Below are positions 9,605 to 47,336 of a DNA stretch of 64,000 nt, one piece after another. Made by a program: the position numbers and the translations under genes. The notes below the pieces were generated by a model that worked only from the letters and a program-made list of their open reading frames with translations, did not search any database and was not told the DNA's origin. Positions within the stretch are counted from its first letter, which is position 1, and the number at the start of each line of letters is the position of its first letter. The DNA is taken from the IMG/VR virus record IMGVR_UViG_3300021478_000018; one strand, written 5' to 3'. Source of the stretch: an uncultured virus (IMG/VR IMGVR_UViG_3300021478_000018) (Duplodnaviria; Heunggongvirae; Uroviricota; Caudoviricetes).

Positions 9605-9952
9605 ATGAACGAAGAAAAACCACTTAAAGAGACCCTCTGGTTCGTGGGGGAGAATTATAACGTCGCCTACGGTAAGAAGCCGGTTAAGAGCGATAAGGTT
9701 TACGTCGTCGAGATTCTCGCCGACGGAACGAACGAGGCCGGGACGAAGACGTTTTGGACCGTAAAGGCGAGCTGGGGGAGGCGCGGTAAAGCGTTCCAGT
9801 CCCAGATTAAACTCGAAAAGACCTCCTCCTACTACTTCGCGAAGTCGAAGTTCGAGGAGCTTCTCCGGGCGAAGCTCGATAAGGGGTATAAGAAGTGGGA
9901 GTTCGCGCCCGAAGTAGAAACGATGCATACGATTAGCGGATGGGACGAATAA
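9605..9952 (+). CDS. WGR-domain protein with C-terminal ETMH tag
   Basis: SDKVY...WGRRG...Q...F..L...K..KGY pattern; ends PEVETMHTISGWDE. Confidence 0.85.
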   Translation: MNEEKPLKETLWFVGENYNVAYGKKPVKSDKVYVVEILADGTNEAGTKTFWTVKASWGRRGKAFQSQIKLEKTSSYYFAKSKFEELLRAKLDKGYKKWEFAPEVETMHTISGWDE

Positions 9953-9953
9953 A

Positions 9954-10475
9954 ATGGAAAGGCCCGAAATTGAAGAGTGGATCGCCGTCGAGCGGGATTC
10001 CTGGAAAAGTATTATGAACGGAGTTCCGAGTGGGGCCTGGTTAATGCACGAGTTCCTTCTCCGGAACGGGAAACGGTTCGTCTCTCAGCCGAAGCCGCGA
10101 CGCTACAAGATGGGGGTTCCGAAAGCGTGTTTCGAGAATACCCGGGCCCTCGTTAGCCGGTCGCGGGGCCGACTCCGTTACGCCGAAGGGTACGTCGCGA
10201 GCGCCGAGCTTCCACTCTTAATCCTGCACGCCTGGGCGGTGGATTCCGAGGACCGGGTTATCGATACGACGCTCCAGGATATCCTTACTCGGGAAAGCCG
10301 GTCCGCCGAGGCGCAATATTTCGGGATCGTCTTTCCGAAGGAGATCTGGCCGAAATGGGGTGGGTTGAGCGTTCTCGATTCGGACCGGGGTTACCGGATC
10401 CCCTTATGGTTAACGGTCGATTCCGGTTTTCGGGAATTTCTTCCGGAGGGGTTCGCGCTTTCGCGAAATGTATAG
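9954..10475 (+). CDS. conserved phage protein, possible Cys-His-Asp (papain/transglutaminase-like) fold
   Basis: CFEN...YAEGY...HAW...IDTT...YFG motif order. Confidence 0.6.
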   Translation: MERPEIEEWIAVERDSWKSIMNGVPSGAWLMHEFLLRNGKRFVSQPKPRRYKMGVPKACFENTRALVSRSRGRLRYAEGYVASAELPLLILHAWAVDSEDRVIDTTLQDILTRESRSAEAQYFGIVFPKEIWPKWGGLSVLDSDRGYRIPLWLTVDSGFREFLPEGFALSRNV

Positions 10476-10478
10476 TTT

Positions 10479-10811
10479 ATGAAAAAAGAACCGCGAACGA
10501 AAAAGTTTCTTCGCTATATAATCGCCCATCCCGGGACGACGGCGGCGGGGATGATTAAGGCGTTAGGCTGCGTCCAATATTATCCGGTTTATATCTCGGC
10601 GGATAATCAGGCGAAAGCCGCCGCCGAGCGAGCCGCGCTCGGTCTTAAACCGAGTAAGCCCCGGGTCGACGGACGTTCGACTTTCGAGACGGTTAAGACG
10701 CTCGTTAAGAAGGGTCTCGTCCGGAAGGCGAAAGAGGGGACGAAAGTCCGCCTTTATCCGATCGTCCCGAACCTCGAAACGATGCACGAAATTTCCGGCT
10801 ACGACGCTTAA
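10479..10811 (+). CDS. winged-helix-like protein with C-terminal ETMH tag
   Basis: FLRYIIAHPGTTAAGMIKALG...VKTLVKKGLVRK...VRLYP; ends PNLETMHEISGYDA. Confidence 0.7.
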   Translation: MKKEPRTKKFLRYIIAHPGTTAAGMIKALGCVQYYPVYISADNQAKAAAERAALGLKPSKPRVDGRSTFETVKTLVKKGLVRKAKEGTKVRLYPIVPNLETMHEISGYDA

Positions 10812-10822
10812 GCCCGGGCCGT

Positions 10823-11863
10823 ATGACCTATCGGAGGAGGCCTAGGAGCCTCCGGGCCGCGTTTAAAACCGAGTCCGCGTTAGAGACGGGGACTCGGATT
10901 AAAAAGCCTCTTAAACCGGCTCGGAGCGAGCCGGAGACCGATTTCGCTCTTCTTAAAGAAATGCACACTTTAGCCGCTTCCGTCCCTACAGTACCCGAGA
11001 CCGAGACCGAGATCGAGATCGATCCGAGGATTAAACTAACCCGACGGCTTTTAATCGGGGCGGCGATTTTCGCCGGATTACTCGTAATCGGTTACCTCGT
11101 TCTAATCGGGACTTCTTACGGGCACCGGCTCGATAACGCCGCCTTTACGGGCCGGTTATCCCTTTCCCGGGGGTTAGCGAACGCTTTTAGGAACCTTTTA
11201 GAGATCGTTAATAAGAAGGGTCTCTTAATCGCTTCCGTCCTCTTACTCGGGATCGCGGCTTACCGCCGGGTTATCGAGGTCGGAATTATCGCGGTAATCG
11301 CTTTCGGAAGTTCGATCGTCGGAGCGGAACTTTTAAAACATGAACTCCCTCGGAACGCTCTCGTCCCCGGGGACTCCTGGATAAATAAAGCGCTCTGGGA
11401 TAATTCGTACCCGAGCGGGCATACCACCGTCGCCGCTTCGCTCGTTCTCGCTTTTCTCCTCGTCTCTCCGGCCCGGTTCCGGCCTTTCCTCGTCGTCGGG
11501 GGCGGCCTCTTAAGCGCCGCCTTCGCGACCGGGGTCCTCGCGGCGGGCTGGCATAGGCCCTCGGACGCTCTCGGGGCGCTGGCCTGGTCTGGATTTTGTA
11601 TGTCGGTCGCGGCGGCGGTCTCGATCCGGTTCCGGGGCCGGTTACTCTCGGAGCCGAGCCGCTATAACCTCGGCTCGGTCGGGCTCTTCGTCGCCGTCGC
11701 GACGACCTTCCTCCTCGCCCTCGTAAGCGCGAGAGCGATTAACTACGTCGGGATGGATTGGGTCTTCTTCGTTCTAACCGGAACGATCGCCGCCTTCTCC
11801 TTCGCGCTAATCGGCTGGTATGGGTTAACCCTCTCGGGCGTCGAATTTAATAGGAATGACTGA
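10823..11863 (+). CDS. PAP2-family membrane phosphatase
   Basis: KHELPR, SYPSGH and HRPSD motifs with several TM helices; true start may be the ATG at 10961. Confidence 0.85.
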   Translation: MTYRRRPRSLRAAFKTESALETGTRIKKPLKPARSEPETDFALLKEMHTLAASVPTVPETETEIEIDPRIKLTRRLLIGAAIFAGLLVIGYLVLIGTSYGHRLDNAAFTGRLSLSRGLANAFRNLLEIVNKKGLLIASVLLLGIAAYRRVIEVGIIAVIAFGSSIVGAELLKHELPRNALVPGDSWINKALWDNSYPSGHTTVAASLVLAFLLVSPARFRPFLVVGGGLLSAAFATGVLAAGWHRPSDALGALAWSGFCMSVAAAVSIRFRGRLLSEPSRYNLGSVGLFVAVATTFLLALVSARAINYVGMDWVFFVLTGTIAAFSFALIGWYGLTLSGVEFNRND

Positions 11864-12137
11864 ACTCGATATTGCTTACTGGGAGCGGAACCGGCTCGTC
11901 CGGTTCCTCGCTTCCCTTTATCCCTCCGGGACGAGGCGAACGGCGATTCTCGGCTGGGAGCCGGAGTGGTGTAACTGCGTTTACATCGATACCCCGGAAG
12001 GACAGCTCAGCTGGCATTATCACGACCGGGAAGCCGGGACCTTCGCCGATCTTCCGCGCTACGAAAAAGAGTGGGACGGGCATACCACGGAGGAGAAGTA
12101 TAACCGGCTCGCCCGGCTCGGCTGGCGAAATGGGTAA
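11856..12137 (+). CDS. conserved phage hypothetical protein
   Basis: YIDTPEGQLSWHY...WDGHT motif. Confidence 0.75.
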   Translation: MTELDIAYWERNRLVRFLASLYPSGTRRTAILGWEPEWCNCVYIDTPEGQLSWHYHDREAGTFADLPRYEKEWDGHTTEEKYNRLARLGWRNG

Positions 12138-12141
12138 CGGT

Positions 12142-12285
12142 ATGGAGAATCATTACATCTTAGAAGTAAGCGAGAAGGAATTTTCGAAAATCTTAAACGC
12201 TCTCCGGCTCGCCGGAGCGCTCGAATTAGTCGCCTCGTTAACGAACCGGGCCGAGAAGGATAAGGGCGATAACGATGAAAACTGA
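12142..12285 (+). CDS. small hypothetical protein
   Basis: MENHYILEV... after a CGAAATGG variant element; overlaps the next start. Confidence 0.45.
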   Translation: MENHYILEVSEKEFSKILNALRLAGALELVASLTNRAEKDKGDNDEN

Positions 12286-13771
12286 AACCGTTGCCGCTGA
12301 GCCGACCGATTTAAAGCGGAGAACGACCCGGGGAGCCTTCTCCTCCCTCGCCGGGCAAGGGCTTTCTTTCGTCCTCCGATTAGGTTCGCTCGTTATTTTA
12401 GCCCGCCTCTTAAGCCCGAGAGATTTCGGTCTCGTGGGAATGGCGACGGCGATTACCGGGATCCTCGTCTTATTCCAGGACGCCGGTCTTTCCAACGCCG
12501 CGATCCAGAGCGCCTCGATTACCCGGGAGCAAACGTCGACGTTGTTTTGGATTAACGTCGCGGTCGGTTTCGTTCTCGCTTCGCTCGTCGTAATCGCCGC
12601 CCCGTTTCTCGCGACTTTTTACCGGGAACCCCGGGTCGCGCCGGTCGCTTACGCCCTCGCCTCGACCTTTCTTTTCTTCGGGGCCTCGGCGCAGCATCGG
12701 GCAATGCTAGTCCGGAATATGAAGATCTCGACCCTCGCGATCGCCGATTTAATCGGGAGCGGGATTAGCGTCTCGATCGCGATTACTTTAGCGCTTCTCG
12801 GAGCGGGATACTGGGCGCTCGTCGGTTTAGCGGTCGTCCCGCCGCTCTTTAACCTAATCGCCGTCCTCTTCCTCGGGCGCTGGTTACCGGGGCTTCCGAG
12901 CCGGACGGCGGGAATCGGAAAAATGATAAAATACGGGGGGACCCTAATGCTCGATAGCGCGGTAATGTACTTCGCTTACAATACCGATAAGATCCTTCTC
13001 GGACGGTTCCTCGGAGCGGAAGCGCTCGGCCTTTACGGTCGCGCTTACCAGCTGGTTAATATCCCGACCGCGACCCTTTCCTCGGTTCTCGGGTCGACCC
13101 TCTTCCCGGTCCTTTCCCGGCTTCAGGGGGAGCCGGAGCGGCTTCGGAACTATTTCCTAAAGAGTTATACTTTATTCCTAAGCCTGGCTACCCCGGTAAC
13201 GGTCGCTTGCGGTCTCTTCGGGGAAGATATTATCCGGGTCTTTCTCGGGCCGAAGTGGATCGAGGCCGCGCCGATCTTCCGGCTTCTCGCCCCGACGATT
13301 CTCGCCTTCGCTCTTATTAATCCGACCGGTCTTTTACTCTACGCTCTCGGGCGCGTAATCCAGGGGCTCTATATCGGGCTAATGATCGCCCCGGTCGTTA
13401 TCGCCGGGTACGCTTTCGGGCTTAGTTACGGGCCGGAAGGGGTCGCGGGAGGGTTTTCCGGGGCGATGCTCCTCCTAATCGTTCCCTCGATCCTCTGGGG
13501 CGTAAAAGGGACTCCGGTAAGTTCGAAGGACGTTTTCCGGGCGATCTTTCCGCCGCTTAGTTCGGTCGTTATCGCCGGGGTTCTCGCCGGACTCGTCGCG
13601 ATCCCGGCTTCCCGGATCGAGGTTCCCTTCTTTCGGCTCGTCGTCGAGAACGCCGTTCTCTTCGGAGCGCACGGGGCTCTTCTCTACTTCGTTTTAGGGC
13701 AGAAAGCCCTCTACCTTAGCGTCTTCTCCGGGCTCGGCTTAAAGTTCCGGCGGCGGGCGTCGGCGGTCTAA
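12275..13771 (+). CDS. wzx: Wzx-type polysaccharide flippase (WzxC-like)
   Basis: LARLLSPRDFGLVGMA, DKILLGRFLGAEALGLYGRAY, many TM helices. Confidence 0.9.
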   Translation: MKTETVAAEPTDLKRRTTRGAFSSLAGQGLSFVLRLGSLVILARLLSPRDFGLVGMATAITGILVLFQDAGLSNAAIQSASITREQTSTLFWINVAVGFVLASLVVIAAPFLATFYREPRVAPVAYALASTFLFFGASAQHRAMLVRNMKISTLAIADLIGSGISVSIAITLALLGAGYWALVGLAVVPPLFNLIAVLFLGRWLPGLPSRTAGIGKMIKYGGTLMLDSAVMYFAYNTDKILLGRFLGAEALGLYGRAYQLVNIPTATLSSVLGSTLFPVLSRLQGEPERLRNYFLKSYTLFLSLATPVTVACGLFGEDIIRVFLGPKWIEAAPIFRLLAPTILAFALINPTGLLLYALGRVIQGLYIGLMIAPVVIAGYAFGLSYGPEGVAGGFSGAMLLLIVPSILWGVKGTPVSSKDVFRAIFPPLSSVVIAGVLAGLVAIPASRIEVPFFRLVVENAVLFGAHGALLYFVLGQKALYLSVFSGLGLKFRRRASAV

Positions 13772-13775
13772 CGAT

Positions 13776-13976
13776 ATGACGAAAGAATTAGCTAATAAAA
13801 TCGAGGCTTTCTTAAAAGAGAAGCTCGAACCGGAGCACGGCTACATTTTAATCTTCGGCGAAATAGCGACGTCGAATACCGGGATTATTAGTAACTATTC
13901 CGGGGAAAAGGTCGTTAAGATCCTAAAGACCTTTTCCGACGTTCCCTATATTCCCGGGGATCCCGATTTAAACTAA
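13776..13976 (+). CDS. hypothetical protein
   Basis: 66-aa ORF convergent on the collagen-like gene. Confidence 0.55.
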
Positions 13977-15028
13977 GCGCGGTTAGCGGGTTCGGCGGTC
14001 GGACCGAGATCGGCGATTAAAGCGTAACTTACGAGTCCCGGCCAGTTCGCGTCGTTTTCCCCGATAATCGAAATAAGGGGATTCCCGGCGTATTGTCGGG
14101 CCAGGATACTAACCGAGGGCGTCGTTCCCGAAACTACCCTCCAAAAGATTAAGGAGGCCCCGTTACAACTCGCATCGTCTTTCTTATCGACGACGACGTG
14201 AAGGGTGCGGTGGAAGGCGTCCTGATCGTCCGGAGACCAATCGATTAGCGCCATCTCCCCGGTATTGGCCGTCCAGGCGAGATGGGTGGAGAGGGCGATC
14301 TGGAGGAGGGTATTCCCGGGCCGGGGCGGGAGAGGGAAGGTCGTCGGCGGTAAAATGGTATACCAGGTATTAAGATTCGCGAGCGAAGTATAAGGAAGAG
14401 AGACGACGAGTGGCTCGGAAGGGAGCCCCGCTAACTTCGAATAATCCGGGACTGGAACGTAGAGAAGAGAATCGTTCCCTAAAGTCGCCGTATTCCCGGC
14501 GTCGGCGCTAACTAAGGTCGGGCCCGGGATGCCCTGGGGGCCTTCGGAGCCGACTGGCCCCTGAGGTCCGGGAGGTCCCGCCGGACCGAGTTTACCTTCG
14601 GGACCGACGGAGCCGGATGGGCCCTGAGACCCTTGGGACCCCTGATCGCCGGGGTCCCCTTTATCGCCTTTCGGCCCGGGAACGGTACTATCCGCTCCGG
14701 GATCCCCTTTCGGCCCGGGAACGGTACTATCCGCTCCGGGATCCCCTTTCGGTCCGGGATCTCCGGGATCGCCTTTCGGGCCGGGAACGGTACTATCCGC
14801 GCCGGGATCTCCTTTATCGCCCTTCGGCCCGACTTCTCCGACCGGGCCCGCCGGGCCGGGATCGCCCGGATCGCCTTTCGGTCCGGGCTCGCCGGGCTCG
14901 CCGTCTTTACCGGGATCGCCTTTAGCGCCTTCCGGTCCCGGAGGGCCCTTCGGTCCTCCTTGTAAGACGGAAGTTGGAATGTAGAAACCACCCTCGACGT
15001 TTAGGACGCGGATGTAGTCTTCGTTCAC
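13973..15028 (-). CDS. collagen-like (Gly-X-Y) fibre protein
   Basis: Long GPKGDPG repeat tract with ADSTVP interruptions, then a C-terminal globular domain. Confidence 0.85.
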
Positions 15029-15059
15029 GCCCCTTAATTACTTCCTTCGAGCGATAAAT

Positions 15060-16889: not shown

Positions 16890-16986
16890 AGGCCCGATAA
16901 CTACTTAGAATCGTCGCTCTATAACTCGCTAATCGCGATCCGCCAAAATACCCAGATCCAGAACAAGAAGAAAATCGAAAGAAGGA

Positions 16987-32525: not shown

Positions 32526-33011
32526 TTAAGCGGGCGGGGTATACGAGGTAGAGTAGGTAAAGATATCGTCCGGGGTACTTCCGAGGATCCGGAGGGTAAC
32601 CGAGAGGTAGACCTGATTATTGTTTTCGTCGGAGTTTACGCTTACCCCTTGGACGGCGACTCGGGGTTCGTACGCTTCGATCGTGGAACGGATCGCCGAC
32701 TGGGCGGTGGCGGTCGTTTTCGCGTCGAGGACCTCGAAGACGAGGGCGTCTAGATTTAACCCGTACCCCGGCAACCAGAGCCTCTCCCCGGGCCGGGTCC
32801 CGAAGAGACTGTTAATCGAGGAGGTTAAAGCCTCCTTATAAGTCATCGGCGACGGGAAGATCGGCCCCGGACGGGCGATCGGGACCGTTACGTTCGGGTC
32901 GACGAGGGCGAGGGGCGCTCCTAAATAGGTATTTTTCGAGAGAATCGGCCCGTACCAGGACGGTACGGTCGTCTTCCGGGAAGTCGTCGGGTTACGGAAC
33001 GAGGTCGGCAT
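32526..33011 (-). CDS. baseplate wedge subunit (T4 gp25 / gpW-like)
   Basis: SINSLFGTRPGERLWLPGYG...IEAYEPRV. Confidence 0.9.
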   Translation of the reverse strand: MPTSFRNPTTSRKTTVPSWYGPILSKNTYLGAPLALVDPNVTVPIARPGPIFPSPMTYKEALTSSINSLFGTRPGERLWLPGYGLNLDALVFEVLDAKTTATAQSAIRSTIEAYEPRVAVQGVSVNSDENNNQVYLSVTLRILGSTPDDIFTYSTSYTPPA

Positions 33012-33045: not shown

Positions 33046-35241
33046 CTAATAATTCGCGGGGTTCTCGTCGACGAGCGCCTTCGTAACCCGCCGGATTAGC
33101 GCCTCGTCCCAGCCGGAAATCGTGTGCATCGTTTCGATATCCGCGACCCCGGCTTTATTAATCGTCCGGGCGATCTCTTCGTAAACCGAGACGATTTCGG
33201 GGCTCGCTTTTAAATCCGCGAAGGCGATCTTTTTCCGTTTCGCCGAGCCTTTTACATCCATCCCGTCGATCGCGTTATTTATAAAATCGGGGAGCGAAAG
33301 GGGCATATCGGTAACGCTCGTCCCGAGGATCATACTGTAGTGGTAGACGTAAACTCGTCTCGGTAAGGAGGGTAACCGCTCGAAACTGATCTTGTAGACC
33401 CGGAGCGGGGAAGTAGGGTAGTCCCGCTTTTCCGGATAAGCTTCGACTTCGAGGACGCTACCCGTCGCTCGCGAGGTCATTCTAATCCGAGGATCGTGAA
33501 ACGTCGTTTCGCAATAATCCGGGTACCGGTTTTCGAGATCGCTACAGAGTTTCGTCCAGATCGCTTTCGGGACCGGCGTCGTCTCTTCGACGAGCCGCGC
33601 TTCGATTAGCCGTCCCTCATCCCAACCGCTTATCGTATGCATCGTTTCGACGTCGGGAGTTTTCTCCGAGTACCACTTTCCTTTTTCATAATTGAGACGC
33701 CCTTTCCAATCGCCCGCTAGACTCGACGCGAAATAGAGAATAATCGGTAAAGCCTTCGAGCCGAGAGTGTGCTGGGAAATAATTTTGAATCTTCCGGTTT
33801 CGCTTCCGCGATATTTAGAAATAACGATATCCCCGGGTTTTAGTCCGGCCCAGTCTTCTAGGGTAACCGGTAGTAAATTTTCCGTTAGCCGTCCCTCATC
33901 CCAACCGGAAATCGTATGCATCGTTTCGACTTCGGGAGCGTTTTCGAGTTCCTGGATAAAGCGGTTAACGATCCCTTCGATCTTCCCGGATTCGGGAGCG
34001 GTCGTTATCGCCCGGTATTTTTGAGGGTTGAGGTCGGTTCCGATTGCGAGCTGCCGGGAGAAGATTTTTTCGAGGGTATCGTCCTCGACGAGAAAGCCGT
34101 CGAGATAGATTCGTTTTACGCCGTAGGTAATCGAGTATTTGAGTTGATTATTGCGACCGGCGTAAACTGGGTCGTAAAAGTGGATGAGTTCGAACTGGAA
34201 GCCTTTTTGCCCCGGATATTTCGGGTTCGGGAAAACTAAGGTCCAATGGCCCCAATCCGACTGGGCGAGCCGGTAACCGAGCGACTCGTTCTCTTTCGCC
34301 CACTTAATCGCCTTCTCGTACGCTTCCGGGGTTACTTTTAAGAGCGGTCCGGATTCTTCCGTTCCCGCTTCCTCGAACCGCCGGATTAACGCCTCGTCCC
34401 AGCCGCTTATCTCGTGCATCGTTTCGATATCGGGAGCCGGGTTTAAGATAGTTAAGATCTTCCCCATCGACACCTCGTATAACGAAGCGACCTCTTTATA
34501 GGCCGCTTTATAGTAACGGGCTAAGGAGACGAGGAGCTTATTTAGATCATCCGTCGAAGCGGTTCCCGAAGCTTTTAAAGCGAGCTTCGAGAAATAAGCG
34601 AAATCGTCGATCCGGTTAATCTCGAAAGGAACGTCATGGAGCCAAACTATCTTCTTTTCTAAGTCGAAACTTAACCGGCCTCTTTTATTAAACCCGTTTA
34701 ATTCGACCGTTAGTTCGTTTTGGTTTCGATAGATCTCGAAACCGAACCGTACCCTTCCCGGGTAAGAGCGGCCTTTAACCGGGACCTCGATATCTTTAAA
34801 CCAAGCGTTTTTCCAGTTCGTAAACCCTAACGGGGTTAGAACGTCGTTGATCTTTCTTAAGAAAACTTCTTCGTCTTCGGGGCTTTCGACGATCGGTTCT
34901 TTCGCGATTATCGCCTCGTCCCAGTTACTAATCGTATGCATCGTCTCGATCTCCGGCGGTAAAGGTTCGGGCTCGATCCCGAGCGCCCGGGCGAGATCGG
35001 CTTCGACCGTTTTCTTATAGGCGGGAGAAGGGTCCTCGATCCCGGCGAGCGATTCGCTCCGTCCGTCGGGGCTCGTCGCGACGCAGTAGTAATATTCCCC
35101 GTCGTAGGCGTCTTCCCCTTCGCCCCCGGGATCTTCTTCCGTATCGAGGTACCATTTAAATTTAACGTCGAAGTCGTCTTCCGCCGTCCGGACGAGGCGT
35201 TCGTCGTCTAGTTCCCGAGGATCTTTTACTTTCCGGGCCAT
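33046..35241 (-). CDS. putative polyprotein of five unrelated modules, each ending in an ETMH tag
   Basis: Five copies of xx[IV]ETMH[TE]IS[GN]WDE within one 731-aa ORF in the structural operon. Confidence 0.8.
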   Translation of the reverse strand: MARKVKDPRELDDERLVRTAEDDFDVKFKWYLDTEEDPGGEGEDAYDGEYYYCVATSPDGRSESLAGIEDPSPAYKKTVEADLARALGIEPEPLPPEIETMHTISNWDEAIIAKEPIVESPEDEEVFLRKINDVLTPLGFTNWKNAWFKDIEVPVKGRSYPGRVRFGFEIYRNQNELTVELNGFNKRGRLSFDLEKKIVWLHDVPFEINRIDDFAYFSKLALKASGTASTDDLNKLLVSLARYYKAAYKEVASLYEVSMGKILTILNPAPDIETMHEISGWDEALIRRFEEAGTEESGPLLKVTPEAYEKAIKWAKENESLGYRLAQSDWGHWTLVFPNPKYPGQKGFQFELIHFYDPVYAGRNNQLKYSITYGVKRIYLDGFLVEDDTLEKIFSRQLAIGTDLNPQKYRAITTAPESGKIEGIVNRFIQELENAPEVETMHTISGWDEGRLTENLLPVTLEDWAGLKPGDIVISKYRGSETGRFKIISQHTLGSKALPIILYFASSLAGDWKGRLNYEKGKWYSEKTPDVETMHTISGWDEGRLIEARLVEETTPVPKAIWTKLCSDLENRYPDYCETTFHDPRIRMTSRATGSVLEVEAYPEKRDYPTSPLRVYKISFERLPSLPRRVYVYHYSMILGTSVTDMPLSLPDFINNAIDGMDVKGSAKRKKIAFADLKASPEIVSVYEEIARTINKAGVADIETMHTISGWDEALIRRVTKALVDENPANY
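33100..34956 (-). repeat. five 45-nt coding repeats of the ETMH tag
   Basis: 34912-34956, 34390-34434, 33892-33936, 33613-33657, 33100-33144. Confidence 0.95.
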
Positions 35242-35249: not shown

Positions 35250-36089
35250 CTAGGAACCGTCGAAGGTCGGGGTCGTATCGACTTCTTTAAGGTTACTTTT
35301 CGCGGTCTGACTACTGCCGCAATTTAGATTAATCTGGGAGGCTTGGATATTAACGACGGAATCGGAGTTAACGTTAACCGAGCTAGCGCCTTCGACGACG
35401 AGATCTCCGGACGAATAGATAATAACCTTATTACCCCGGATCTGAACGGCGGAATCGCAATCGATCGAGACGATATCCGCTCCCTTAATCGAGACCGTCC
35501 CTTTCGCTTTTATCTCGGTTAGACCGGCCTGGGAGATGCTAATGTAGTCGCCGGTCGGAGCGATCGCGATAATTTTCTCCGCGCCGGAGCGGTTATCGAT
35601 TTGGACCATACTCCCGTTCGGCGAGGTATAGTTGTAGTTATCGGGGGAGTTCCCGTTCTTCGCGAACGTGTATTTCGGGACCCCGGTTAAGCCTTCCGGT
35701 TTCGTCGGGGCTCCGCCGAAATACATCGGGTAGCGGTGATCGCCGCCCTCGAAGGCGACGATAACCGGAGCGCCGAGCGGGGGGACGTTCGCGCTCCCGC
35801 CCGCGCCGGTCTTTCCGGAGGAGGTCCCGTTCGCCGCGCCGGTCTGTCCCTTATTGGAGGTCGGCCACGACGGCGAGCAGGGATAGATCCAGGGCAGCTC
35901 GTCCGTAGGGACGTTCCCGTAGATATGGGGGAGGGCGACCTTAATCCGGTTCTGCTTATCGGGATCGTCCCGGCTTATAACGATCCCGCGATGGAAGCCG
36001 GGATGAGCGCCGGAGAAGGAAGCCCGGGTTTCCGTCCCGCGATCGCGGGGAAGTTCGTCCGACGTCTCTAACTCATTCTTTCCGGCCAT
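35250..36089 (-). CDS. baseplate spike (gp5 OB-fold / gpV / VgrG-like)
   Basis: HRGIVISRDDPDKQNRIKV, VPPLGAPVIVAFEGGD..YP, C-terminal beta-helix ending INLN. Confidence 0.9.
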   Translation of the reverse strand: MAGKNELETSDELPRDRGTETRASFSGAHPGFHRGIVISRDDPDKQNRIKVALPHIYGNVPTDELPWIYPCSPSWPTSNKGQTGAANGTSSGKTGAGGSANVPPLGAPVIVAFEGGDHRYPMYFGGAPTKPEGLTGVPKYTFAKNGNSPDNYNYTSPNGSMVQIDNRSGAEKIIAIAPTGDYISISQAGLTEIKAKGTVSIKGADIVSIDCDSAVQIRGNKVIIYSSGDLVVEGASSVNVNSDSVVNIQASQINLNCGSSQTAKSNLKEVDTTPTFDGS

Positions 36090-36261: not shown

Positions 36262-37056
36262 TTAGACGCGATAGAAATTTTCGCCGCCTCGTTTATGCGG
36301 AGTCTCTCCTCCCGGCTTTCTCGGCGGCGGGGCGTCCGAGAGCATCTCTTCCGGGGTTACCCCCCGGCTCCGTAACGATTTAAAAAGCGAGGCTCCCGAA
36401 TTACCGACTTCGCCGCTCGCCGCCGCCGGATCTAACCCGAGGCGGATGAGCTTCTTTTCGAGGTCGTTATAAGCGATCTCGACTAAGAGCGTTTCTTTCT
36501 CGATTAAACGATCGAGCGTCTCGACCGTCTCTTCCGTTCCCGGTTCCTCGTAGCCGGTGGTATGGGTATCCTCGGGTTCGACGGCGGGAATGAGAACCTG
36601 ACGGAAAGTCTGGTAGGCGCGTTCGAGGTCGTGGGGGACGCCGAGGGAGGCGACCTTCTTCGCCGCCTCGTAACGGGGCGAATCTTTCGCCTTCTTTAAC
36701 TCGGAGACGACGAAGGCCTGGAGCGATTTCGGGAGGCTAAGAATCGCCTTATAGTTTTTAAGCGGGCGTTCGCCCCGGAACCCCGTCGTACTCCCCCGTA
36801 AATCGGGATCGATATAGAAGCCGAAGGTCGGCGGAGCGGCGTTCGTTACCGTTAACCATAGATAGTAGTTGCTATGTCCCTCCACCCCCCATAGGTAATC
36901 GGTTCGCGGGCCGCGATGATCCTCGGACCAGCCGTCCGTTCCCCGTAACCCTTTTAGGAGCGTCATTAGCTCCCCTTTCCAGATCTCCTTTTGAACGGCC
37001 TTATTTCCCGCTTCGAGAAGCGCTTCGTCGTCTCCGATCGTTTTATTTAAATCCAT
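36262..37056 (-). CDS. hypothetical protein, possible internal head protein
   Basis: In the structural operon; LLE-A near the N-terminus, LIE and LVE after a degenerate tag DTHTTGYEE. Confidence 0.65.
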   Translation of the reverse strand: MDLNKTIGDDEALLEAGNKAVQKEIWKGELMTLLKGLRGTDGWSEDHRGPRTDYLWGVEGHSNYYLWLTVTNAAPPTFGFYIDPDLRGSTTGFRGERPLKNYKAILSLPKSLQAFVVSELKKAKDSPRYEAAKKVASLGVPHDLERAYQTFRQVLIPAVEPEDTHTTGYEEPGTEETVETLDRLIEKETLLVEIAYNDLEKKLIRLGLDPAAASGEVGNSGASLFKSLRSRGVTPEEMLSDAPPPRKPGGETPHKRGGENFYRV

Positions 37057-38998: not shown

Positions 38999-39005
38999 GG
39001 GACCT

Positions 39006-39789
39006 TCATAAACCGACCGAGGCGTCCCGGAGTAGCTCGACTTGCCAGGCCAGCTCCTTTAGGAGATCCTCCTGAGTATCGCCGTGCCCGGTCGTAAACG
39101 AATGGGCGACCATCCAGGCGGCTAACTTCTCCCGCTGCGTCTCGACGGCCCGGATAAGAAGCGAGGCAACGGTCTCGGCGGTCTCCGGGCTCGCTTCGAA
39201 TTCGGCGATAACCTTTCCCTCCTCGTCTTTTACCGCGTAGTTAGAGACGCCTTCGGCGGCTTTAAAGACCGCTTCCCGGTCGACCGAATCGAGCCAAGTT
39301 CCAAGTAGTTTAAAAGACTCTTCCCCGAGTAATTTCCGCGCTTCTTCTCCTCGTAAATCCATATTCTATCCGTTTAAAACCTTCCAGAGCTTATCGATTA
39401 ATTCCCGCCGGGCCCGCTCTTCGGCTAAGTGCGTAAGCATGTCGGAGACGTTCGGCTGTACGCCGAGTACGCCCCGGAACTGCTTAATCGCCTCGATGAG
39501 CGGTTCGGCGTCCTCGTCCTTTAGATCTTTCTCTAAGTAAACGATTAAGGAATTATACCGGTCACTCATCGTATTCTCCGAGAGCGGTATGGAGGTCGCC
39601 GTGTTCGACGATCGGCTTTATCTCCCAGGATTTCTCCGTTCCGTCGGCGAGGGTAACGGTGAAGATCGTTTTCTCGACCGAGAGACCGGGTAAAAGCCGG
39701 TTTAGAGCTTCTCTTACTTCTTCGATTACTTTTTCCTCCGGGGGAAAGTCATCGTAGGGGGTGGATGAAGGGGATTCTAGATCGCTCAT
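39006..39789 (-). CDS. three small hypothetical genes (39562-39789, 39366-39569, 39006-39362)
   Basis: Coupled ORFs; first start moved to 39789 because a GAAATGTA element lies at 39799-39806. Confidence 0.6.
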
Positions 39790-40526: not shown

Positions 40527-40534
40527 ACGCGCTT

Positions 40535-40825: not shown

Positions 40826-40917
40826 TACCGTGAGTAATTTTCGTCCCGAGTCCGATCCCCGGAATTTTTAACAAGAGAATAGTTACCAGCCGCAACCTTT
40901 TTTAACTCCCTCTCTTT

Positions 40918-41928: not shown

Positions 41929-41931
41929 CTT

Positions 41932-43578
41932 ATGCGAGAGCGATACTGGTGGGTAAATGAGGAGTCGCGGACGGTTCTCGACCGGGGTTACCTCTTAGAG
42001 GGCGAAAAGCCGAAAGACGCGGTCGACCGGATCGTTTCGGCGGCGGCGTTCCGCTTAAACCGGAAGGATTACGCCTCGAAGTTCCGGGATCTAATCGAGT
42101 ACGGCTGGCTCTCGCTCTCGACGCCGATCTGGTGCAATATGGGAACCGAACGGGGTCTCCCGATCTCCTGCTTCGGGTTAACGATCGAGGATAGTATCGA
42201 GAGTATCGCCGACTCGCTTACCGAGGTTATTACCCAGACCAAGGTCGGCGGCGGGACGAGCGCTTACTTCGGGAATATCCGGTCCCGGGGCTCGAAGATT
42301 ACGAATAACGGCGAATCGGGCGGTTCGGTCTCCTTTATGCGGCTTTACGATACGGCGATCGCCGTCGTTTCCCAGGGCACTACGCGCCGGGGAAATATGG
42401 CCGCTTACCAGGATATCGACCATCCCGATATCGGCGAATTTTTAGGGATTAAGAACGTCGGGAGCGACATCCAGAACCTTTTCTACGCGGTTAATATTAC
42501 GGACCGGTGGATGGAGGAGATGGTGGACGGGGATAAGGAGAAGCGGAAACTATGGGCGCGGATCCTAGAGTCGCGCCGGGCGAAAGGCCTCCCCTATCTC
42601 CACTTCGTCGATACCGCGAACCGGCTCGCCCCGGCGGTTTACCGGGAGACGAACCGGCGGATACTCGCGAGTAATCTATGCTGCGAGATCGAGCTACCGG
42701 CGACGGCGGAGGAGTCGTTTGTATGCTGCTTAGCGTCGATGAATCTCGAACTCTACGACGAGTGGAAGGAGACGGACGCGGTCGCGACGGCGATCTATTT
42801 TCTCGACGGGGTAATGTCGGAGTTTATCGCGAAGGCGAGTAAGATCCGGCATCTCGAACGGGCGGTCCGCTTCGCCGTTAATCATCGCGCTCTCGGGCTC
42901 GGGGTTCTCGGCTACCATAGCTACCTCCAGAGCCGCCTTATCCCCTTCGAATCGCTCGCCGCGAAAAATCTTAATACGAAGATCTTCCGCGACCTTAAGA
43001 TCGAGGCGGTCGCGGCGAGCCGCCTTCTGGCGCTGGAATATGGGGAACCGGCGATGATGATCGGGCGCGGGTTAAGGAATACTACTTTACTCTCGGTCGC
43101 GCCTACGACCAGTTCTAGCTCGATCTTAGGCCAAACTAGCCAAGGGATCGAACCCCTCTCCTCGAATTATTTTAAGGTCGGCCTCGCGAAGGGGAACTTT
43201 ATCCGGAAAAATAAGTGGCTCGTCCGGCTTCTAGAGGAAAAGGGAGCGAATACGGATGAGATCTGGAGCGAGATAATGAACGCCGACGGGAGCGTACAGG
43301 GGCTCTCCGTCCTTAGTCCGGAGGAGAAGGAGGTTTTCCGGACCTTTAAGGAGACTTCCCAACTAGAGATTATTAATCAGGCCGCCGCCCGGCAGGAGTA
43401 CATCTGCCAGGGCCAATCGCTTAATCTAAATATCCCGCCGACCGTCGATCCCCGGGAGATAAACCGGCTTTATCTTGAGGCCTGGCGGCTGGGGGTAAAG
43501 GGTTTATACTACCAGAGGAGTCAATCCGTTTCCCAGGAGTTTATCCGGATTCTAAATTGCGCGGCGTGCGCCGCTTAG
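41932..43578 (+). CDS. nrdA: ribonucleotide reductase class I alpha subunit, no ATP cone
   Basis: LPISCF, SNLCCEI, APTTSSS, GLYYQRS, C-terminal CAAC. Confidence 0.95.
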   Translation: MRERYWWVNEESRTVLDRGYLLEGEKPKDAVDRIVSAAAFRLNRKDYASKFRDLIEYGWLSLSTPIWCNMGTERGLPISCFGLTIEDSIESIADSLTEVITQTKVGGGTSAYFGNIRSRGSKITNNGESGGSVSFMRLYDTAIAVVSQGTTRRGNMAAYQDIDHPDIGEFLGIKNVGSDIQNLFYAVNITDRWMEEMVDGDKEKRKLWARILESRRAKGLPYLHFVDTANRLAPAVYRETNRRILASNLCCEIELPATAEESFVCCLASMNLELYDEWKETDAVATAIYFLDGVMSEFIAKASKIRHLERAVRFAVNHRALGLGVLGYHSYLQSRLIPFESLAAKNLNTKIFRDLKIEAVAASRLLALEYGEPAMMIGRGLRNTTLLSVAPTTSSSSILGQTSQGIEPLSSNYFKVGLAKGNFIRKNKWLVRLLEEKGANTDEIWSEIMNADGSVQGLSVLSPEEKEVFRTFKETSQLEIINQAAARQEYICQGQSLNLNIPPTVDPREINRLYLEAWRLGVKGLYYQRSQSVSQEFIRILNCAACAA

Positions 43579-43586
43579 AGAGAACG

Positions 43587-43968
43587 ATGATAGTGGAATT
43601 AGAGGAGGGACCTATGGACGGAGCCGAGATGGACGTTGCGGCCTCGCACGGGTCTTGGTTACGGGTCATCGTTACGGAACAAATGCAGTCCCAATTTTGC
43701 CTCAATTATCAGAAGCTTCCGGCGAAACCCGAACGGTTACCGATCGCCCGCTATTTCCGGAATCCGAATGGGCGTTGGCGGTACGCGGGGATGGAATAAA
43801 AGTATGCGAACGATTCGATTAGACGATTTTTCCTTACGGGAAGACGGGGTACCGGTCCCCTGGCCGGAGGGGGCTTATGCGATCCGGCTCGACGATTTTA
43901 CTTTCGTCGACCGGAATCATCAGCCGCTAAAGGAAGAAGAGAAAGCCGATCCTAAAGATAAACGATAG
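43587..43968 (+). CDS. two small hypothetical genes (43587-43799, 43804-43968)
   Basis: Short ORFs following nrdA. Confidence 0.45.
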
Positions 43969-44614
43969 AGATCGCTTCGAGCTTTTCCGCCCGCCCGGGG
44001 ACCCAGGCCGGAACGGGCGCGGCCCGGACTTTCGTCGAGAAATAGTGGATAACCTTATTCGCTCCGGAAGCGTCTTCGATGAGCCACTGGTGAAACCATT
44101 TATAGCGCCGCCGGGAGTTTAAGATCCCGGTAACCGCTCCGTCTTTCCGGGTCGTCCGATAAATGTATTCTCCGCCCGGTAGCCGGGTTCCGCTAACGGA
44201 GACGATCGTTTCGGGGTAAAGTTTCTCGGTCATAGGAGAGGGGGGTCGAGTAAATCCGCCGCTTTCCGGAGAATTTTTATTTTCTCCGTTATCTTCGCCG
44301 CTTCGAGCCGGAGATCCGCCGCGTAAAGCCGCGCCTTCGAAGGCCGGAGTCGTTTTCTCTTAGGAGCCATAGGCCATCCGGATCGTAACCTCGGCATTAT
44401 TAATCGCCGCCTCTTTACTATAGACCGTATAGTCCATAATCTTTTTCCCATCGACCTCCGCCGACCAGCTTACCCCGATCTCGCGTCCCCGGAAGTTACG
44501 GGTCGAATGCCGGATAATGGTAATCGAGTGGCCGCGATATCCGACCGGTTTCAATTTCCGATCCGAAAAAGTATTAGCGAACTTCGCCCGGATTTCTTTA
44601 GATGTAACGCTCAT
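43952..44614 (-). CDS. small hypothetical genes (44360-44614, about 44230-44373, 43952-44233)
   Basis: Coupled ORFs after a GAAATGTA element at 44621-44628. Confidence 0.55.
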
Positions 44615-44683
44615 AGCCTATACATTTCGTGAGCGGGCGGGGTTCCGCGCTCGCGACGTTTCTATAGAACGGGAGCGCGTCCG

Positions 44684-45361
44684 TTACTTAAAATGATTTT
44701 CCCGGGCCAGCTTAATGGAAGCCCAGTTTCCGCTCGTAAAATCTTTCGCCGGATTAAGCCGGAAGAGTTCCGGGGTATCGGTAATATTTCCGATGTAAAC
44801 GACTTCGTCGAAAGAGGTTAGGAACATTTCCTTCTTTTCCTCCGGCGTACAGGCGACATAACTCGGCGGGGGCGGGATCCGGACCGGAATAAAGTTTATC
44901 GCGTTTAATTCGCATTGGAAGTAGGTCCGTCCGACGTAGCTCCCGTAATTCGGGTCGTAATAGACGAAATAGCTCCGGGTCGTCCGCTTCGGAAGCTCCG
45001 GCGGCGGGTTCGGCGGTAGGTTCCAGGGGTCTTTCCTCGGGGTTAGGATCGAGACCGGCTCCGGCGGGGGAGGAGGAACGTAGCCGTGATCCTTAGCGAA
45101 CTCCATCGGGGTCCCGGGATCGACCCGGGTCGCGCAGGGGCACGGTTTCTCCTGAGACCCGGAGAGGATATCGCCGACCCGGACGACCTCGTTTAACCGG
45201 GTAACGAGCCCGGTATCGCGCCCGAAATCGTCAAAGGCTAATTTTAGCCCTTTAATCCAGGGAGCGTAGCCCCGGATCCAGCTCCAAGTCGCCTGAATCG
45301 TCGGGCTAATAATCTCGGCGTCGCCGGGCGGCGGCGTCGTAAGGACGGCGGCGGTAGTCAT
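44684..45361 (-). CDS. Pro-rich hypothetical protein
   Basis: 225-aa ORF downstream of the exonuclease. Confidence 0.65.
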   Translation of the reverse strand: MTTAAVLTTPPPGDAEIISPTIQATWSWIRGYAPWIKGLKLAFDDFGRDTGLVTRLNEVVRVGDILSGSQEKPCPCATRVDPGTPMEFAKDHGYVPPPPPEPVSILTPRKDPWNLPPNPPPELPKRTTRSYFVYYDPNYGSYVGRTYFQCELNAINFIPVRIPPPPSYVACTPEEKKEMFLTSFDEVVYIGNITDTPELFRLNPAKDFTSGNWASIKLARENHFK

Positions 45362-45371
45362 TACCCCTTAT

Positions 45372-46469
45372 TTACGCGAACCGGGCCGGTCGTAACGCCG
45401 GATTACCGGCGTAGTCGTAAAAGGCGGGAAAATGCCGGAGAAACGTCTTCCAATCGATTAGAAAGCTCGCCATCTCGAACCGCCGGATCCGGTCCCGGGC
45501 CTTCGCTTCGTTAACCGCCGTCGTCGTCGAAGCGATCCGGTCGGCTAAGATTTTCGAGTAATAGCCGTCGCTATCGGCCTCCAGAGTTAAGGATAGATCT
45601 ATACATCGCATTTGGGCATCGAGATCCCGGCTATCGATCGCGGAGCCGAGGCTCGTGGTTTGTCGCTCGTTAAGAACCTTCCGCCATTCGGTCTCGCCCG
45701 CGTCGATTAAAACGCTAAAATCGTAAAAATGCTGGACGATTTTTAGGGCCGCCGCCGGTCCGATTCCCGGGACGCCCGGGAGATTATCCGAGCCGTCCCC
45801 GACGAGTAGCCGGTAAAGGACCCAGCGATCGAGGGGAATCCCCTCCGGGAGTTTCTCGACGAAGCGGATAAAGGTCCGGGGACCGACTTCCCGCATCTTT
45901 ATCCAGAACTTCTTATCCGGCCCGTCGTATTCCGGTCCGCCGATCCGGACAATTTTCCCTTTCGCCGGAACCATCGGACTGAAGAGATGCACCGTCTTTC
46001 CGATGAGCTGTATAAAGTCTTTATCGCCGGATACCAGGACGGTTTCTCCTTCGAAGGGGATTCGATAGGCGGCGAGGGCGGCGATATCGTCGGCTTCCAG
46101 TTCATCTTCTTTTAGTGTCGGGATACCGAGATAGGAGAGGATCTCTTCGGTCGCGTCGAGCTGGTCGTTAAAGAGGCGGCGTTCATTTACTTCGGCGACC
46201 GTCCGGTGCGCGTCGGTCCGGTTCGCCTTATAAAGGGGGTAAATCTCGGTCCGGAAAGAGCTTTTACTATCCCGGGCGGCGATTATCGCTCGCGGTCGGA
46301 ATAAATCCGAGAGCATTATTAAACTTTTTAGGACCCCGAAGATCGTTCCCGTCGATTCGCCGTACGAATTAGTAAGGCCGCCCGTCGTCGACCAGGTCCT
46401 ATGAGCGAGATGATTGAGGTCGAGGATTAGACGACCGTTCTGAAAGTTGGAGTAAACGCTAACGCCCAT
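45372..46469 (-). CDS. 5'-3' exonuclease / flap endonuclease (T4 RNase H, Pol I N-terminal family)
   Basis: LILDLNHLAHR, YKANR, EADD, SGDKDFIQL, GDGSDNLPGVPGIGP. Confidence 0.95.
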   Translation of the reverse strand: MGVSVYSNFQNGRLILDLNHLAHRTWSTTGGLTNSYGESTGTIFGVLKSLIMLSDLFRPRAIIAARDSKSSFRTEIYPLYKANRTDAHRTVAEVNERRLFNDQLDATEEILSYLGIPTLKEDELEADDIAALAAYRIPFEGETVLVSGDKDFIQLIGKTVHLFSPMVPAKGKIVRIGGPEYDGPDKKFWIKMREVGPRTFIRFVEKLPEGIPLDRWVLYRLLVGDGSDNLPGVPGIGPAAALKIVQHFYDFSVLIDAGETEWRKVLNERQTTSLGSAIDSRDLDAQMRCIDLSLTLEADSDGYYSKILADRIASTTTAVNEAKARDRIRRFEMASFLIDWKTFLRHFPAFYDYAGNPALRPARFA

Positions 46470-46498
46470 TTTCTCTTAATAGAGAACGGGGGCGAAAA

Positions 46499-46699
46499 TT
46501 ACGAGCCCCGTTGGCATCGGATCCGCCGGGCCGGTATTCCGGCGAGCTTCGTCCGTTCGACATGCCATCGGGCCCCTTCTAGTCCGCCGGTAATCGTCGT
46601 CGCGGTTAGATTAAATTTTTCGGGATGATCGCAGTAATCGCAGGTCGTCCGGGGAATAAGGGGGGTAAGGGGAGTGAGTTGTTTAAGTTGTTTAGACAT
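46499..46699 (-). CDS. small hypothetical protein with CxxC
   Basis: 66-aa ORF. Confidence 0.4.
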   Translation of the reverse strand: MSKQLKQLTPLTPLIPRTTCDYCDHPEKFNLTATTITGGLEGARWHVERTKLAGIPARRIRCQRGS

Positions 46700-46757
46700 A
46701 TCGGGAGAGAGGGAAGCGGTTTCTAAAGTTAGAACGGCGAAATGTACGAAGGTATCG

Positions 46758-47336
46758 ATGAAAGATTACGCACCGCACGAACTAATTACTGCCCAAGTGG
46801 AGAATTTCCGCGAGTGGTGGAACGAATTAACCCCGGCGCAGCGGCCTCCCGGCTTAGATATGGAAGCGGTCTTTATCCATATCGTCGAGAAGACCGTCCT
46901 TCCCGAAGTCTCTTACCGCCTCGATCAGGTCATCTACTACGATCAGGGCACTTATCCCGAACCGAGTCTAATCGCTTCCCTCCCTTACCGGAAGTATCCG
47001 GAGAAGCCGGAGTCGGCTTGGAACTCGCTCCGGCTCTATTTTACGCTTCACCCGCCTTTCGGGACCCGGAAAGCCTGGAAGATTACCGCGAACCTCCCGG
47101 AGCTACAAGGGCTCTTAAAACGGTTCCGGCTCGAATTCGACCCGATCGCCGTAACCGAAGCGATCGAGAAGACGACCCGGATTCCTTTCCTTAACGGGAA
47201 CGGGAAACGTTACCGGCCTTACCGGACGGAAGCGGAGGCGACGGCGGCGGTCGGAAAAATCCTCCTTAAGCTCGGGCTCGTTAAGCCGCTCCGAGGTATC
47301 GACGAGATGCACGAGATCTCGGCCTGGGACGCGTAA
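46758..47336 (+). CDS. hypothetical protein with C-terminal ETMH-type tag
   Basis: Start moved to 46758, after GAAATGTA at 46739; ends GIDEMHEISAWDA. Confidence 0.75.
   Translation: MKDYAPHELITAQVENFREWWNELTPAQRPPGLDMEAVFIHIVEKTVLPEVSYRLDQVIYYDQGTYPEPSLIASLPYRKYPEKPESAWNSLRLYFTLHPPFGTRKAWKITANLPELQGLLKRFRLEFDPIAVTEAIEKTTRIPFLNGNGKRYRPYRTEAEATAAVGKILLKLGLVKPLRGIDEMHEISAWDA

Follow-up and report, generated by a model that had tools for sequence, protein, structure and literature searches.

What is the role of a short peptide that ends several unrelated phage proteins and recurs inside a much longer one? This question is raised by a 64-kb stretch of DNA (57.5% G+C) of the uncultured virus IMGVR_UViG_3300021478_000018, a T4-like jumbo phage; the whole of this stretch is referred to here as the window. 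The peptide, hereafter called the tag, ends three small proteins of the window and occurs five times within a 731-amino-acid (aa) open reading frame (ORF), which has been placed on a 254,649-bp contig. Its consensus is a Pro-rich spacer followed by hydrophobic-E-[T/E/D]-M-H-x-[I/M/L/V]-[S/T/R]-G-[W/Y]-D-x-COOH. Our analysis confirms that the observation, first made by a model from the letters of the window (the sequence-only reading), is real and stronger than first described. It adds a strict rule for the position of the tag at the chain end, a Glu and a small residue behind internal copies, a family of tag-delimited strings to which the 731-aa ORF belongs, and the general use of a gene-start element, GAAATGTA, that had been noticed before the tagged genes. 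We tentatively explain the tag as a portable, unstructured C-terminal address peptide for one lineage-specific reader that might sense the chain end; the multi-tag ORFs would then be polyproteins, probably cut after Glu, and the tagged proteins might be loaded into the virion.

The copies in the window follow the form E-x-M-H-x-I-S-x-[WY]-D-x. A search of the six-frame translation of the window with the pattern MH.[ILMVF][STRI].[WYF]D gives eight matches, while 200 windows simulated with a first-order Markov model give none (maximum 0). All eight are in frame on the coding strand, three at protein ends and five inside one ORF, just where the sequence-only reading had placed them, and each of the three terminal copies ends one residue before the stop codon. 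The four genes are as follows; the stand-alone tagged proteins are called cargo throughout.

9605-9952, plus strand: cargo 1, a 115-aa WGR-domain protein; tag core 9914-9949, stop codon 9950-9952
10479-10811, plus strand: cargo 2, a 110-aa protein; tag core 10773-10808
46758-47336, plus strand: cargo 3, a 192-aa hypothetical protein; tag core 47298-47333
33046-35241, minus strand: the 731-aa multi-tag ORF; tag cores 34915-34950, 34393-34428, 33895-33930, 33616-33651 and 33103-33138

Such a recurrence might reflect nothing more than a translated repeat of the DNA, for example a mobile element or a recombination or regulatory site. Inside the 731-aa ORF there is some sign of this: a repeat finder returns only families of 54-66 nucleotides, all within this ORF and 61-89% identical, and some of its tag pairs reach 86-89%, which fits recent duplication or gene conversion. 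Codon use was compared at identical degenerate residues between tag pairs, with the expectation taken from the codon usage of the window. Over all 207 comparisons the two codons agree in 0.55, where 0.46 would be expected; for pairs within the 731-aa ORF the value is 0.60 against 0.46 (86 comparisons), and some of its internal tags have perhaps been copied recently. For pairs that include a stand-alone gene, however, same-codon use is about as expected (0.50 against 0.45, 121 comparisons). Ser is encoded by AGC, AGT, TCC or TCG, which requires switches between AGY and TCN, Ile by ATT, ATA or ATC and His by CAT or CAC, so that the codon variety reported by the sequence-only reading holds codon by codon. 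Every copy is in frame on the coding strand, and orthologues vary the peptide yet keep M, H and the aromatic-D pair. The tag is conserved at the protein level, without a DNA-level element, and a translated DNA repeat is refuted as its main cause. The avoidance of CA/TG dinucleotides claimed earlier is also strong across the window (positions 1-64000; odds ratio 0.26), which makes the retained ATG-CAY and TGG codons of the tag more telling.

The tag is shared by a small group of relatives. The 89-kb IMG/VR contig G001 has the same gene-start element and the same form of the tag as the window; it encodes six different tag-ended proteins, a 460-aa ORF with two internal tags and a 175-aa ORF with one tag 15 residues before its end, and a longer metagenome copy of this contig has a seventh terminal tag (L012). 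AP72, which comprises three contigs from another sample, has two stand-alone proteins that end in the tag and two multi-tag ORFs, one of 990 aa with six copies and one of 791 aa with five, the fifth being terminal. Wider scans returned little else. In GTDB genomes three matches were found, all by chance; in IMG/VR a strict pattern matched one contig, a looser pattern with W matched nine loci (five true, namely four in G001 and L028, and four by chance) and a pattern with Y matched eight loci, all by chance, so that true tags in IMG/VR are confined to G001 and one 10-kb contig. The motif has no match in Pfam or PHROGs, and phmmer with 22 aa of the tag as query found nothing among the PDB sequences at E 10. 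We found no description in the literature of this motif or of such polyproteins in tailed phages.

It could be argued that the motif is simply the conserved end of one folded domain and that all of these proteins are related, and many modules of the multi-tag ORFs do have a similar size (~160-190 aa) with a helix before the tag. The bodies that precede the tag speak against this. BLAST links none of the 11 stand-alone bodies, stripped of their tags, to another body or to an internal module; in single-linkage clustering, which is inflated by unsplit giant proteins and was used only for these 11 bodies, all of them are singletons. Cargo 1 belongs to the WGR family, as the sequence-only reading had proposed (PF05406, E 4.1e-6, 27.3 bits against a cut-off of 22 bits). 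Its best fold matches are the WGR domains of PARP1, PARP2 and PARP3, with template modelling (TM) scores of 0.45-0.54 and probabilities of 0.94-1.00 but Foldseek E-values of only 0.04-0.15. In the AlphaFold model residues 1-99 are folded confidently, and residues 100-115, which hold the tag, have a predicted local distance difference test (pLDDT) score of 42-48 and no secondary structure. All 11 metagenome orthologues (59-77% identity) close with a variant of the tag, placed alike in each; Met, His and Asp never vary, Asp always follows an aromatic residue, and the two upstream Glu residues are invariant or nearly so.

A quite different body is found in G001, at the following position.

G001 82439-82840 (locus L019 2439-2840), minus strand: tagged protein with a ribosomal L7/L12 C-terminal domain (PF00542, E 2.7e-10); tag at its end

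Apart from WGR and L7/L12, Pfam and PHROGs searches of all tagged proteins and polyproteins gave only a weak methyltransferase (P0025) and DUF4160 (P0029). Cargo 3 belongs to no family in Pfam or PHROGs. For cargo 2, which had been called winged-helix-like, the only Pfam matches are three winged-helix families, all below their cut-offs (MarR_2, E 0.081; Penicillinase_R, 0.15; EarA, 0.18); this fold is only weakly suggested and the earlier call is not confirmed. The AP72 homologue of cargo 2 (L014 4464-4835, minus strand; 32% identity over 90 aa) ends without a tag, which means that the tag has been gained or lost within one cargo family. A tblastn hint of a WGR module inside the five-tag protein of AP72 did not hold up, since the hhalign alignment of the WGR profile is confined to the tag with its spacer (31 columns, probability 29%). 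The tag thus follows a WGR fold, an L7/L12 domain and bodies without detectable similarity, and it is unstructured in both AlphaFold models, including that of the 731-aa ORF described below. These points bring the idea of a shared folded domain close to refutation. Of the conditions that the sequence-only reading named as refuting, both that can be checked here fail: the tag belongs to no shared folded domain, and nucleotides are no better conserved than amino acids. The earlier interpretation is partly supported. The points above agree with its portable short linear motif on unrelated cargo, as does the retention of the tag in lineage-specific forms, and the partners that it listed (capsid or portal loader, RNA polymerase, clamp, protease, compartment) are all candidates. 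In the models the tag is a linear peptide with flexible surroundings, mostly preceded by a spacer rich in Pro.

Some genes around the cargo deserve mention in their own right. The 173-aa ORF at 9954-10475 (plus strand), between two tagged genes, was considered as a tag-specific Cys-His-Asp enzyme of the transglutaminase fold and rejected, as it has no Pfam match even at E 5 and no match in G001; it belongs to a widespread hypothetical family of phages and bacteria (Atlas feature score 0.97, clusters of ~100 members; YunG-like clusters reach only 0.85). Two genes upstream of the first tagged gene lies a VWA-like protein of 209 aa (8612-9241, plus strand; VWA_2, E 0.0011, below the cut-off; phrog_7371, E 1.9e-58). 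Its DxSxS...T...D motif looks intact by eye and is presumably a metal site, if we take the metal-ion-dependent adhesion site in its usual definition. This protein is a candidate reader of an acidic chain end, adjacency being the sole link. A 75-aa ORF behind a GAAATGTA site (39562-39789, minus strand) ends in L-H-x-x-x-G-x-Y-D-E-stop, one residue longer than the tag, and might carry a degenerate terminal copy, which relatives do not confirm.

The 731-aa ORF is one member of a family of tag-delimited strings. HMMER with this ORF finds 21 proteins at E <=0.001, among them strings with 10 tags (1675 aa), 11 tags (1578 aa), 7 tags (1460 aa) and 5 tags (846 aa). Its own five modules are mutually unrelated and their order is shuffled relative to P0002 and to L014 of AP72. 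Over the multi-tag ORFs as a whole, the modules without their tags fall into at least seven unrelated groups, and their order differs among the window, P0002 and AP72. The AlphaFold model of the 731-aa ORF, built from an alignment of 10 sequences, has a mean pLDDT of 57, and its troughs below 50 (residues 90-122, 267-295, 438-462, 520-553 and 700-711) coincide with its five tags, with better-predicted alpha/beta modules between them. Behind the last tag an 18-aa tail (33049-33102) is conserved across the 731-aa ORF, P0002 and L014. The modules themselves resemble little that is known: no match to the 731-aa ORF was returned by tblastn from 50,697 phage records, jackhmmer from module 4 found only P0002, the Atlas model is poor (predicted TM score 0.27) and without usable neighbours, and all matches of the 731-aa model in BFVD have TM <=0.10. 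VIA-align likened module 4 to Tudor/SH3 and module 2 to KA1 at Z 5-6.4, which is below a meaningful level.

A further ORF of the window is related to such a string.

36262-37056, minus strand: 264-aa ORF with a decayed tag (36544-36576; one residue shorter, Met and Asp lost); 49.5% identity to L014 6471-7100

This ORF, which lies upstream of the spike gene described below, is the counterpart of module 2 of the five-tag ORF of AP72. In AP72 the homologue has an intact tag and then three more modules, and in the window the tag has decayed where the downstream modules have been lost; we count this in favour of the explanation given below. Three giant proteins from other metagenomes (P0019, P0020 and P0029, of 2744, 3260 and 2154 aa) have single modules in common with the 731-aa ORF. 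A distant version of the tag, E-x-E-[E/D]-V-H-T-D-T-[S/G]-[Y/F]-E-E, is present in two of the three, and DUF4160 in P0029 is the only known domain found in the three.

The position of the tag follows a strict rule. C-terminal enrichment in relatives, which the sequence-only reading had suggested looking for, is seen on stand-alone proteins: in 13 of 13 tags on distinct stand-alone cargo, and in 12 of 12 members of the WGR family, the chain ends exactly one residue after Asp. Internal copies obey a different rule. There the residue after Asp is Glu in 65 of 66 copies (26/27 + 39/39), the next one is A, S, T or G in 62 of 66 (27/27 + 35/39) and R or N in the other four, and further on mostly R, L, V or I follows, then often L or I. 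Pro is found at position -5 in 22 of 27 internal copies. At terminal copies the last residue is Ala in eight, Glu in two, Ser in two and Gly in one (n=13), and in the WGR orthologues it is Ala in six, Ser in three and Glu in two (n=11); Glu at internal copies differs from both sets (2/13 and 2/11; Fisher p = 3.8e-7 and 2.5e-9, respectively). This split suggests that the stretch from the upstream Glu to Asp has a function common to all copies which depends on the chain end, while Glu and the residues after it would serve a function needed only inside a chain.

The simplest readings of the internal Glu are that the chain is cut after it or that its side chain mimics the carboxylate of a chain end. 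A cut seems to be favoured for two reasons: constraint extends to the residues after Glu, and the clade encodes a suitable type of protease. The 460-aa ORF of G001, with its two tags, has on one side a gp23-like capsid gene (PF07068, E 4.6e-45) and on the other a gene in which a gp21-type (S77) protease is joined to a long scaffold-like tail (PF03420, E 2.6e-15; phrog_207, E 1.4e-30). Likely gp21-type sites in G001 are I-L-E|A in the capsid protein and I-L-E|S at the N-terminus of the protease. A gp21-type protease was not seen in the 64-kb window itself, which also does not include the capsid gene of its phage, and a search of IMG/VR with the protease domain returned G001 alone. The closest protease (38% identity) belongs to the 595-kb phage LR756511.1, where the tag is absent and the single pattern match contains a stop codon. 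Co-folding of the 686-aa protease-scaffold protein of G001 with its 78-aa tagged protein scored 0.00, a value which, with controls not run, speaks neither for nor against binding. In T4, gp21 trims core and internal proteins by cutting after Glu, and a short N-terminal peptide, the capsid targeting sequence (CTS), serves to load the internal proteins (PMC9958956, PMC5694885, PMC7411985). Jumbo-phage proteases likewise cut after Glu; gp245 of SPN3US does so after A-x-E and prefers Ser at P1' (PMC10052503).

The same Glu can be accommodated without any cut. A reader might bind terminal and internal tags alike, with Glu as a stand-in for the carboxylate, and the whole proteins would act as multivalent scaffolds that gather readers or hold cargo. 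Repeat-motif scaffolds of bacterial microcompartments act in this way, as uncut multivalent docking proteins. The exchange of Glu for the chain end fits such a mimic as well as it fits a cut, tags in flexible linkers would suit multivalent binding, and the P3 and P2 residues of the tag are unlike those of the likely gp21-type sites in the head proteins of this clade. However, a mimic needs no particular residues after Glu, and these are constrained, in internal copies only, to a small residue, then R/L/V/I and often L/I. The conserved 18-aa tail after the last tag likewise looks like a separate piece. We therefore consider uncut docking to be fairly unlikely.

At the other extreme, the tag might be a protease site and nothing else, the terminal copies being functionless relics of genes that were split from polyproteins. 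The resemblance of internal copies to Glu-specific sites and the movement of modules between contexts would be expected if this were so. But 12 WGR family members, with identities as low as 59%, have all kept the terminal tag and its M, H and D. Terminal tags persist despite the avoided CA/TG codons, and their last residue drifts from Glu while the rest is held. In addition, no homology to a polyprotein module was seen for any stand-alone cargo. A site without any further function is therefore highly improbable.

In the explanation which we tentatively favour, one lineage-specific partner would read the tag together with the chain end. Stand-alone cargo genes would simply terminate in the tag, and a multi-tag ORF would be a string of 5-11 unrelated modules, each closed by the tag, Glu and a small residue. 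The polyprotein would be cut after the tag Glu, probably by a T4 gp21-type (S77) prohead protease, and the released modules would then end like the stand-alone cargo. The favoured destination would be the interior of the virion (the prohead core), with delivery into the next host. Of this picture, the motif with its strict position, portability, disorder and dialects and the rule of Glu plus a small residue are observed, while a single reader, recognition of the chain end, cleavage, the protease responsible and the virion as destination are inferred. The virion interior is preferred because the multi-tag genes sit in baseplate-hub and head-morphogenesis clusters. The structural genes next to the 731-aa ORF in the window are listed here.

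32526-33011, minus strand: gp25-like baseplate wedge gene, directly downstream of the 731-aa ORF (PF04965, E 3.7e-17)
35250-36089, minus strand: gp5-like baseplate spike gene (PF04717, E 4.3e-9; phrog_430); 78.5% identity to L014 8361-9185

In both the window and AP72 multi-tag ORFs flank the gp5-like spike gene, among hub and wedge genes, and the gp25-like gene directly downstream of the 731-aa ORF places the latter in a late, structural context. In its fullest form this explanation becomes a private sorting code: up to 11 cargo proteins would be made as one polyprotein, the head protease would cut at the tag ends, the pieces and the free tagged proteins would be loaded into the virion by way of their identical C-terminal address and injected into the next host, and the dialect of each lineage would be matched to its reader. 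That whole scheme is possible, yet we regard it as doubtful.

The tag does come in dialects. Identity of the tag core is 0.78 within a source and 0.61 between sources, a difference that none of 2000 label permutations reaches, although these statistics are inflated by shared descent and by non-independent copies within one protein. R with Y/F is fixed in P0002, P0021 and P0026, S/T with W in the window, G001, P0017, P0016 and AP72, and S with Y in P0025. Terminal tags are closest, or nearly tied, to the internal tags of their own source in the window (0.79) and in AP72 (0.77, against 0.80 to P0016). Such dialects fit a lineage-specific reader and do not prove it.

The stand-alone genes also share an element at their start, at these positions.

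9591-9598, plus strand: GAAATGTA before cargo 1 (site scan)
10465-10472, plus strand: GAAATGTA before cargo 2 (site scan)
46739-46746, plus strand: GAAATGTA before cargo 3 (site scan), which supports the start of this gene at 46758

That the element precedes all three stand-alone tagged genes, as the sequence-only reading had stated, is correct, but it is not specific to them. The window has 16 sites against 0.59 expected (924-61615; for example 1137-1144, 3052-3059 and 44621-44628) and G001 has 15, and most of them precede untagged genes. The consensus, GAAATGTA-n3-5-GGTATG, lies 6-11 nucleotides before start codons, mostly of small genes and on both strands, and it is absent before capsid, sheath and baseplate genes. 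The element could act in transcription, as a promoter for near-leaderless transcripts, or mark translation starts in one temporal class of genes. Because the stand-alone cargo share it with small non-structural genes, they possibly belong to another, possibly early, expression class than the multi-tag ORFs, which weakens the case for a virion destination and keeps alive a cytoplasmic hub (clamp, polymerase, ribosome or unfoldase) as a rival.

With such a hub, encoded by the host or the phage, the tag would be a tether or a degron in the infected cell. It would bring cargo onto a sliding clamp, onto RNA polymerase, onto the ribosome or onto an AAA+ unfoldase through its N-domain, for recruitment or timed degradation and with no loading into the virion. 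Clamp clients of T4 and RB69 and SspB-type adaptors use C-terminal tails on unrelated proteins in just this manner, and some of the cargo (WGR; L7/L12 C-terminal domain) looks nucleic-acid- or ribosome-handling. However, none of the cargo is a recognisable enzyme of replication or transcription, late structural clusters surround the multi-tag ORFs, and 10-11 degrons or clamp plugs in one protein are hard to rationalise. Pfam searches of 75 window ORFs and 76 of 107 G001 ORFs found no clamp, ClpX/ClpP, Lon or Cdc48, only a MoxR-type AAA_5 ATPase in G001. A cytoplasmic hub is for these reasons unlikely. The MoxR-type ATPase adjoins a DUF2201-like protein.

Several findings weigh against the explanation based on cleavage and virion loading. 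Four of the 66 internal copies have R or N in place of a small residue after Glu, and the internal Glu could mimic the chain-end carboxylate without any cut. A site of the form aromatic-D-E-small is present in none of eight head-cluster proteins of G001, in line with the differing P3 and P2 residues of the probable protease sites. The gene setting varies, being the baseplate hub in the window and AP72 and the head cluster in G001, and the stand-alone genes have the gene-start element of small non-structural genes. Finally, the inflation of the dialect statistics has to be borne in mind, and the terminal tags of G001 have an identity of 0.57 to its own internal tags (a set with one chance match) against 0.44-0.73 to other sources, with 0.73 to those of the window.

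Beside the gp25-like wedge and the OB domain of the gp5-type spike, the genes of the window include a gp6-like wedge, collagen-like fibres, ribonucleotide reductase and a large glycosyltransferase cluster. The sugar-handling set (10823-13771 and 47353-57274) comprises six glycosyltransferases from four Pfam families, a PAP2 phosphatase, a flippase-like protein (Polysacc_synt_3, E 1.9e-77), a methyltransferase and a Pel9A-like beta-helix protein. An Nmad2 nucleotide-modification gene is present at 1155-1799, and G001 has a 5-hmdU DNA kinase (PF18723, E 2.4e-84). The depletion of CA/TG (0.26) is accompanied by a window-wide enrichment of CG (1.54); a link of the depletion to thymidine hypermodification or to restriction avoidance is possible.

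To our knowledge, how large phages select the accessory proteins that travel with the genome has been worked out in detail in few models, as in the CTS of T4, the ejection proteins of P22 and T7 and the inner bodies of phiKZ-like phages. The tag described here is a conserved, portable C-terminal label with a chain-end rule, polyprotein arrays and dialects, and it offers a testable sorting or docking code in a clade of uncultured soil jumbo phages. Through it, about twelve uncharacterised proteins in each genome can be grouped as one functional set, and the polyprotein reading predicts exact processing sites. If the tag is a loading signal, it might serve as a handle for packing chosen or foreign proteins into jumbo phage particles, and if the sorting code is true, the tag would correspond to the T4 capsid targeting sequence, but at the C-terminus, kept on the protein and used for many cargo proteins. 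If the reader is instead a cytoplasmic hub, the tag would define the client list of that hub.

Among known systems, the tag by analogy seems to work most like the T4 CTS, the cargo-loading peptides of encapsulins and the tail of the HK97 protease, with internal copies that resemble a Glu-specific maturation site; it matches none of them in full. The T4 CTS, carried by IPII, IPIII and Alt, is likewise a peptide of ~10 residues on unrelated proteins of a T4-type phage, which takes them into the prohead core and is cut by gp21 at Glu (PMC9958956, PMC5694885, PMC7411985), and the clade studied here has genes for a gp23-type capsid and a gp21-type protease. However, the CTS is N-terminal and is removed, whereas the tag is C-terminal (13/13 stand-alone proteins, 12/12 WGR family members) and would stay on the cargo. 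The tag is also arrayed 5-11 times inside polyprotein-like ORFs, unlike the CTS.

Encapsulin cargo-loading peptides dock on the inside of an HK97-fold shell, and the maturation protease of HK97 reportedly has a C-terminal encapsidation tail, a finding ascribed to Duda, Oh and Hendrix in 2013. Both are short C-terminal peptides behind a flexible linker on unrelated cargo, a description that the tag shares. Their sequences are different, each serves one or few cargo proteins, and polyproteins are not part of these systems. In addition, the genes of encapsulin cargo adjoin the shell gene, an arrangement found here only for the 460-aa ORF of G001 and not for the stand-alone genes or the 731-aa ORF of the window.

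The site of T4 gp21 is Leu/Ile-x-Glu. Internal tags resemble the sites of prohead proteases in having Glu at P1 (65/66) and a small residue at P1' (62/66). But P3 is Leu or Ile in T4 and Ala for SPN3US gp245 (PMC10052503), whereas all copies of the tag have W, Y or F at P3, with Asp at P2. Moreover, such sites span three residues, the tag is conserved over 12-14, and terminal tags leave nothing to cut. The C-terminal tails of clamp clients and the tethers of SspB, as generally understood, also place one peptide on unrelated proteins for a single hub; they have no counterpart of the multi-tag proteins in structural clusters, and the cargo here is WGR, L7/L12-like or of no known family, with no recognisable replication or transcription machinery.

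What is known already are short terminal targeting peptides and Glu-specific maturation sites, and what is new is a short C-terminal tag, probably an address, for which we found no description. For its putative polyproteins a likeness lies outside the tailed phages. The pp220 and pp62 proteins of African swine fever virus are structural polyproteins cut at a repeated short site, and they too are long precursors of unrelated structural pieces with one repeated motif between them. Unlike the motif of pp220 and pp62, the one described here also ends free-standing genes.

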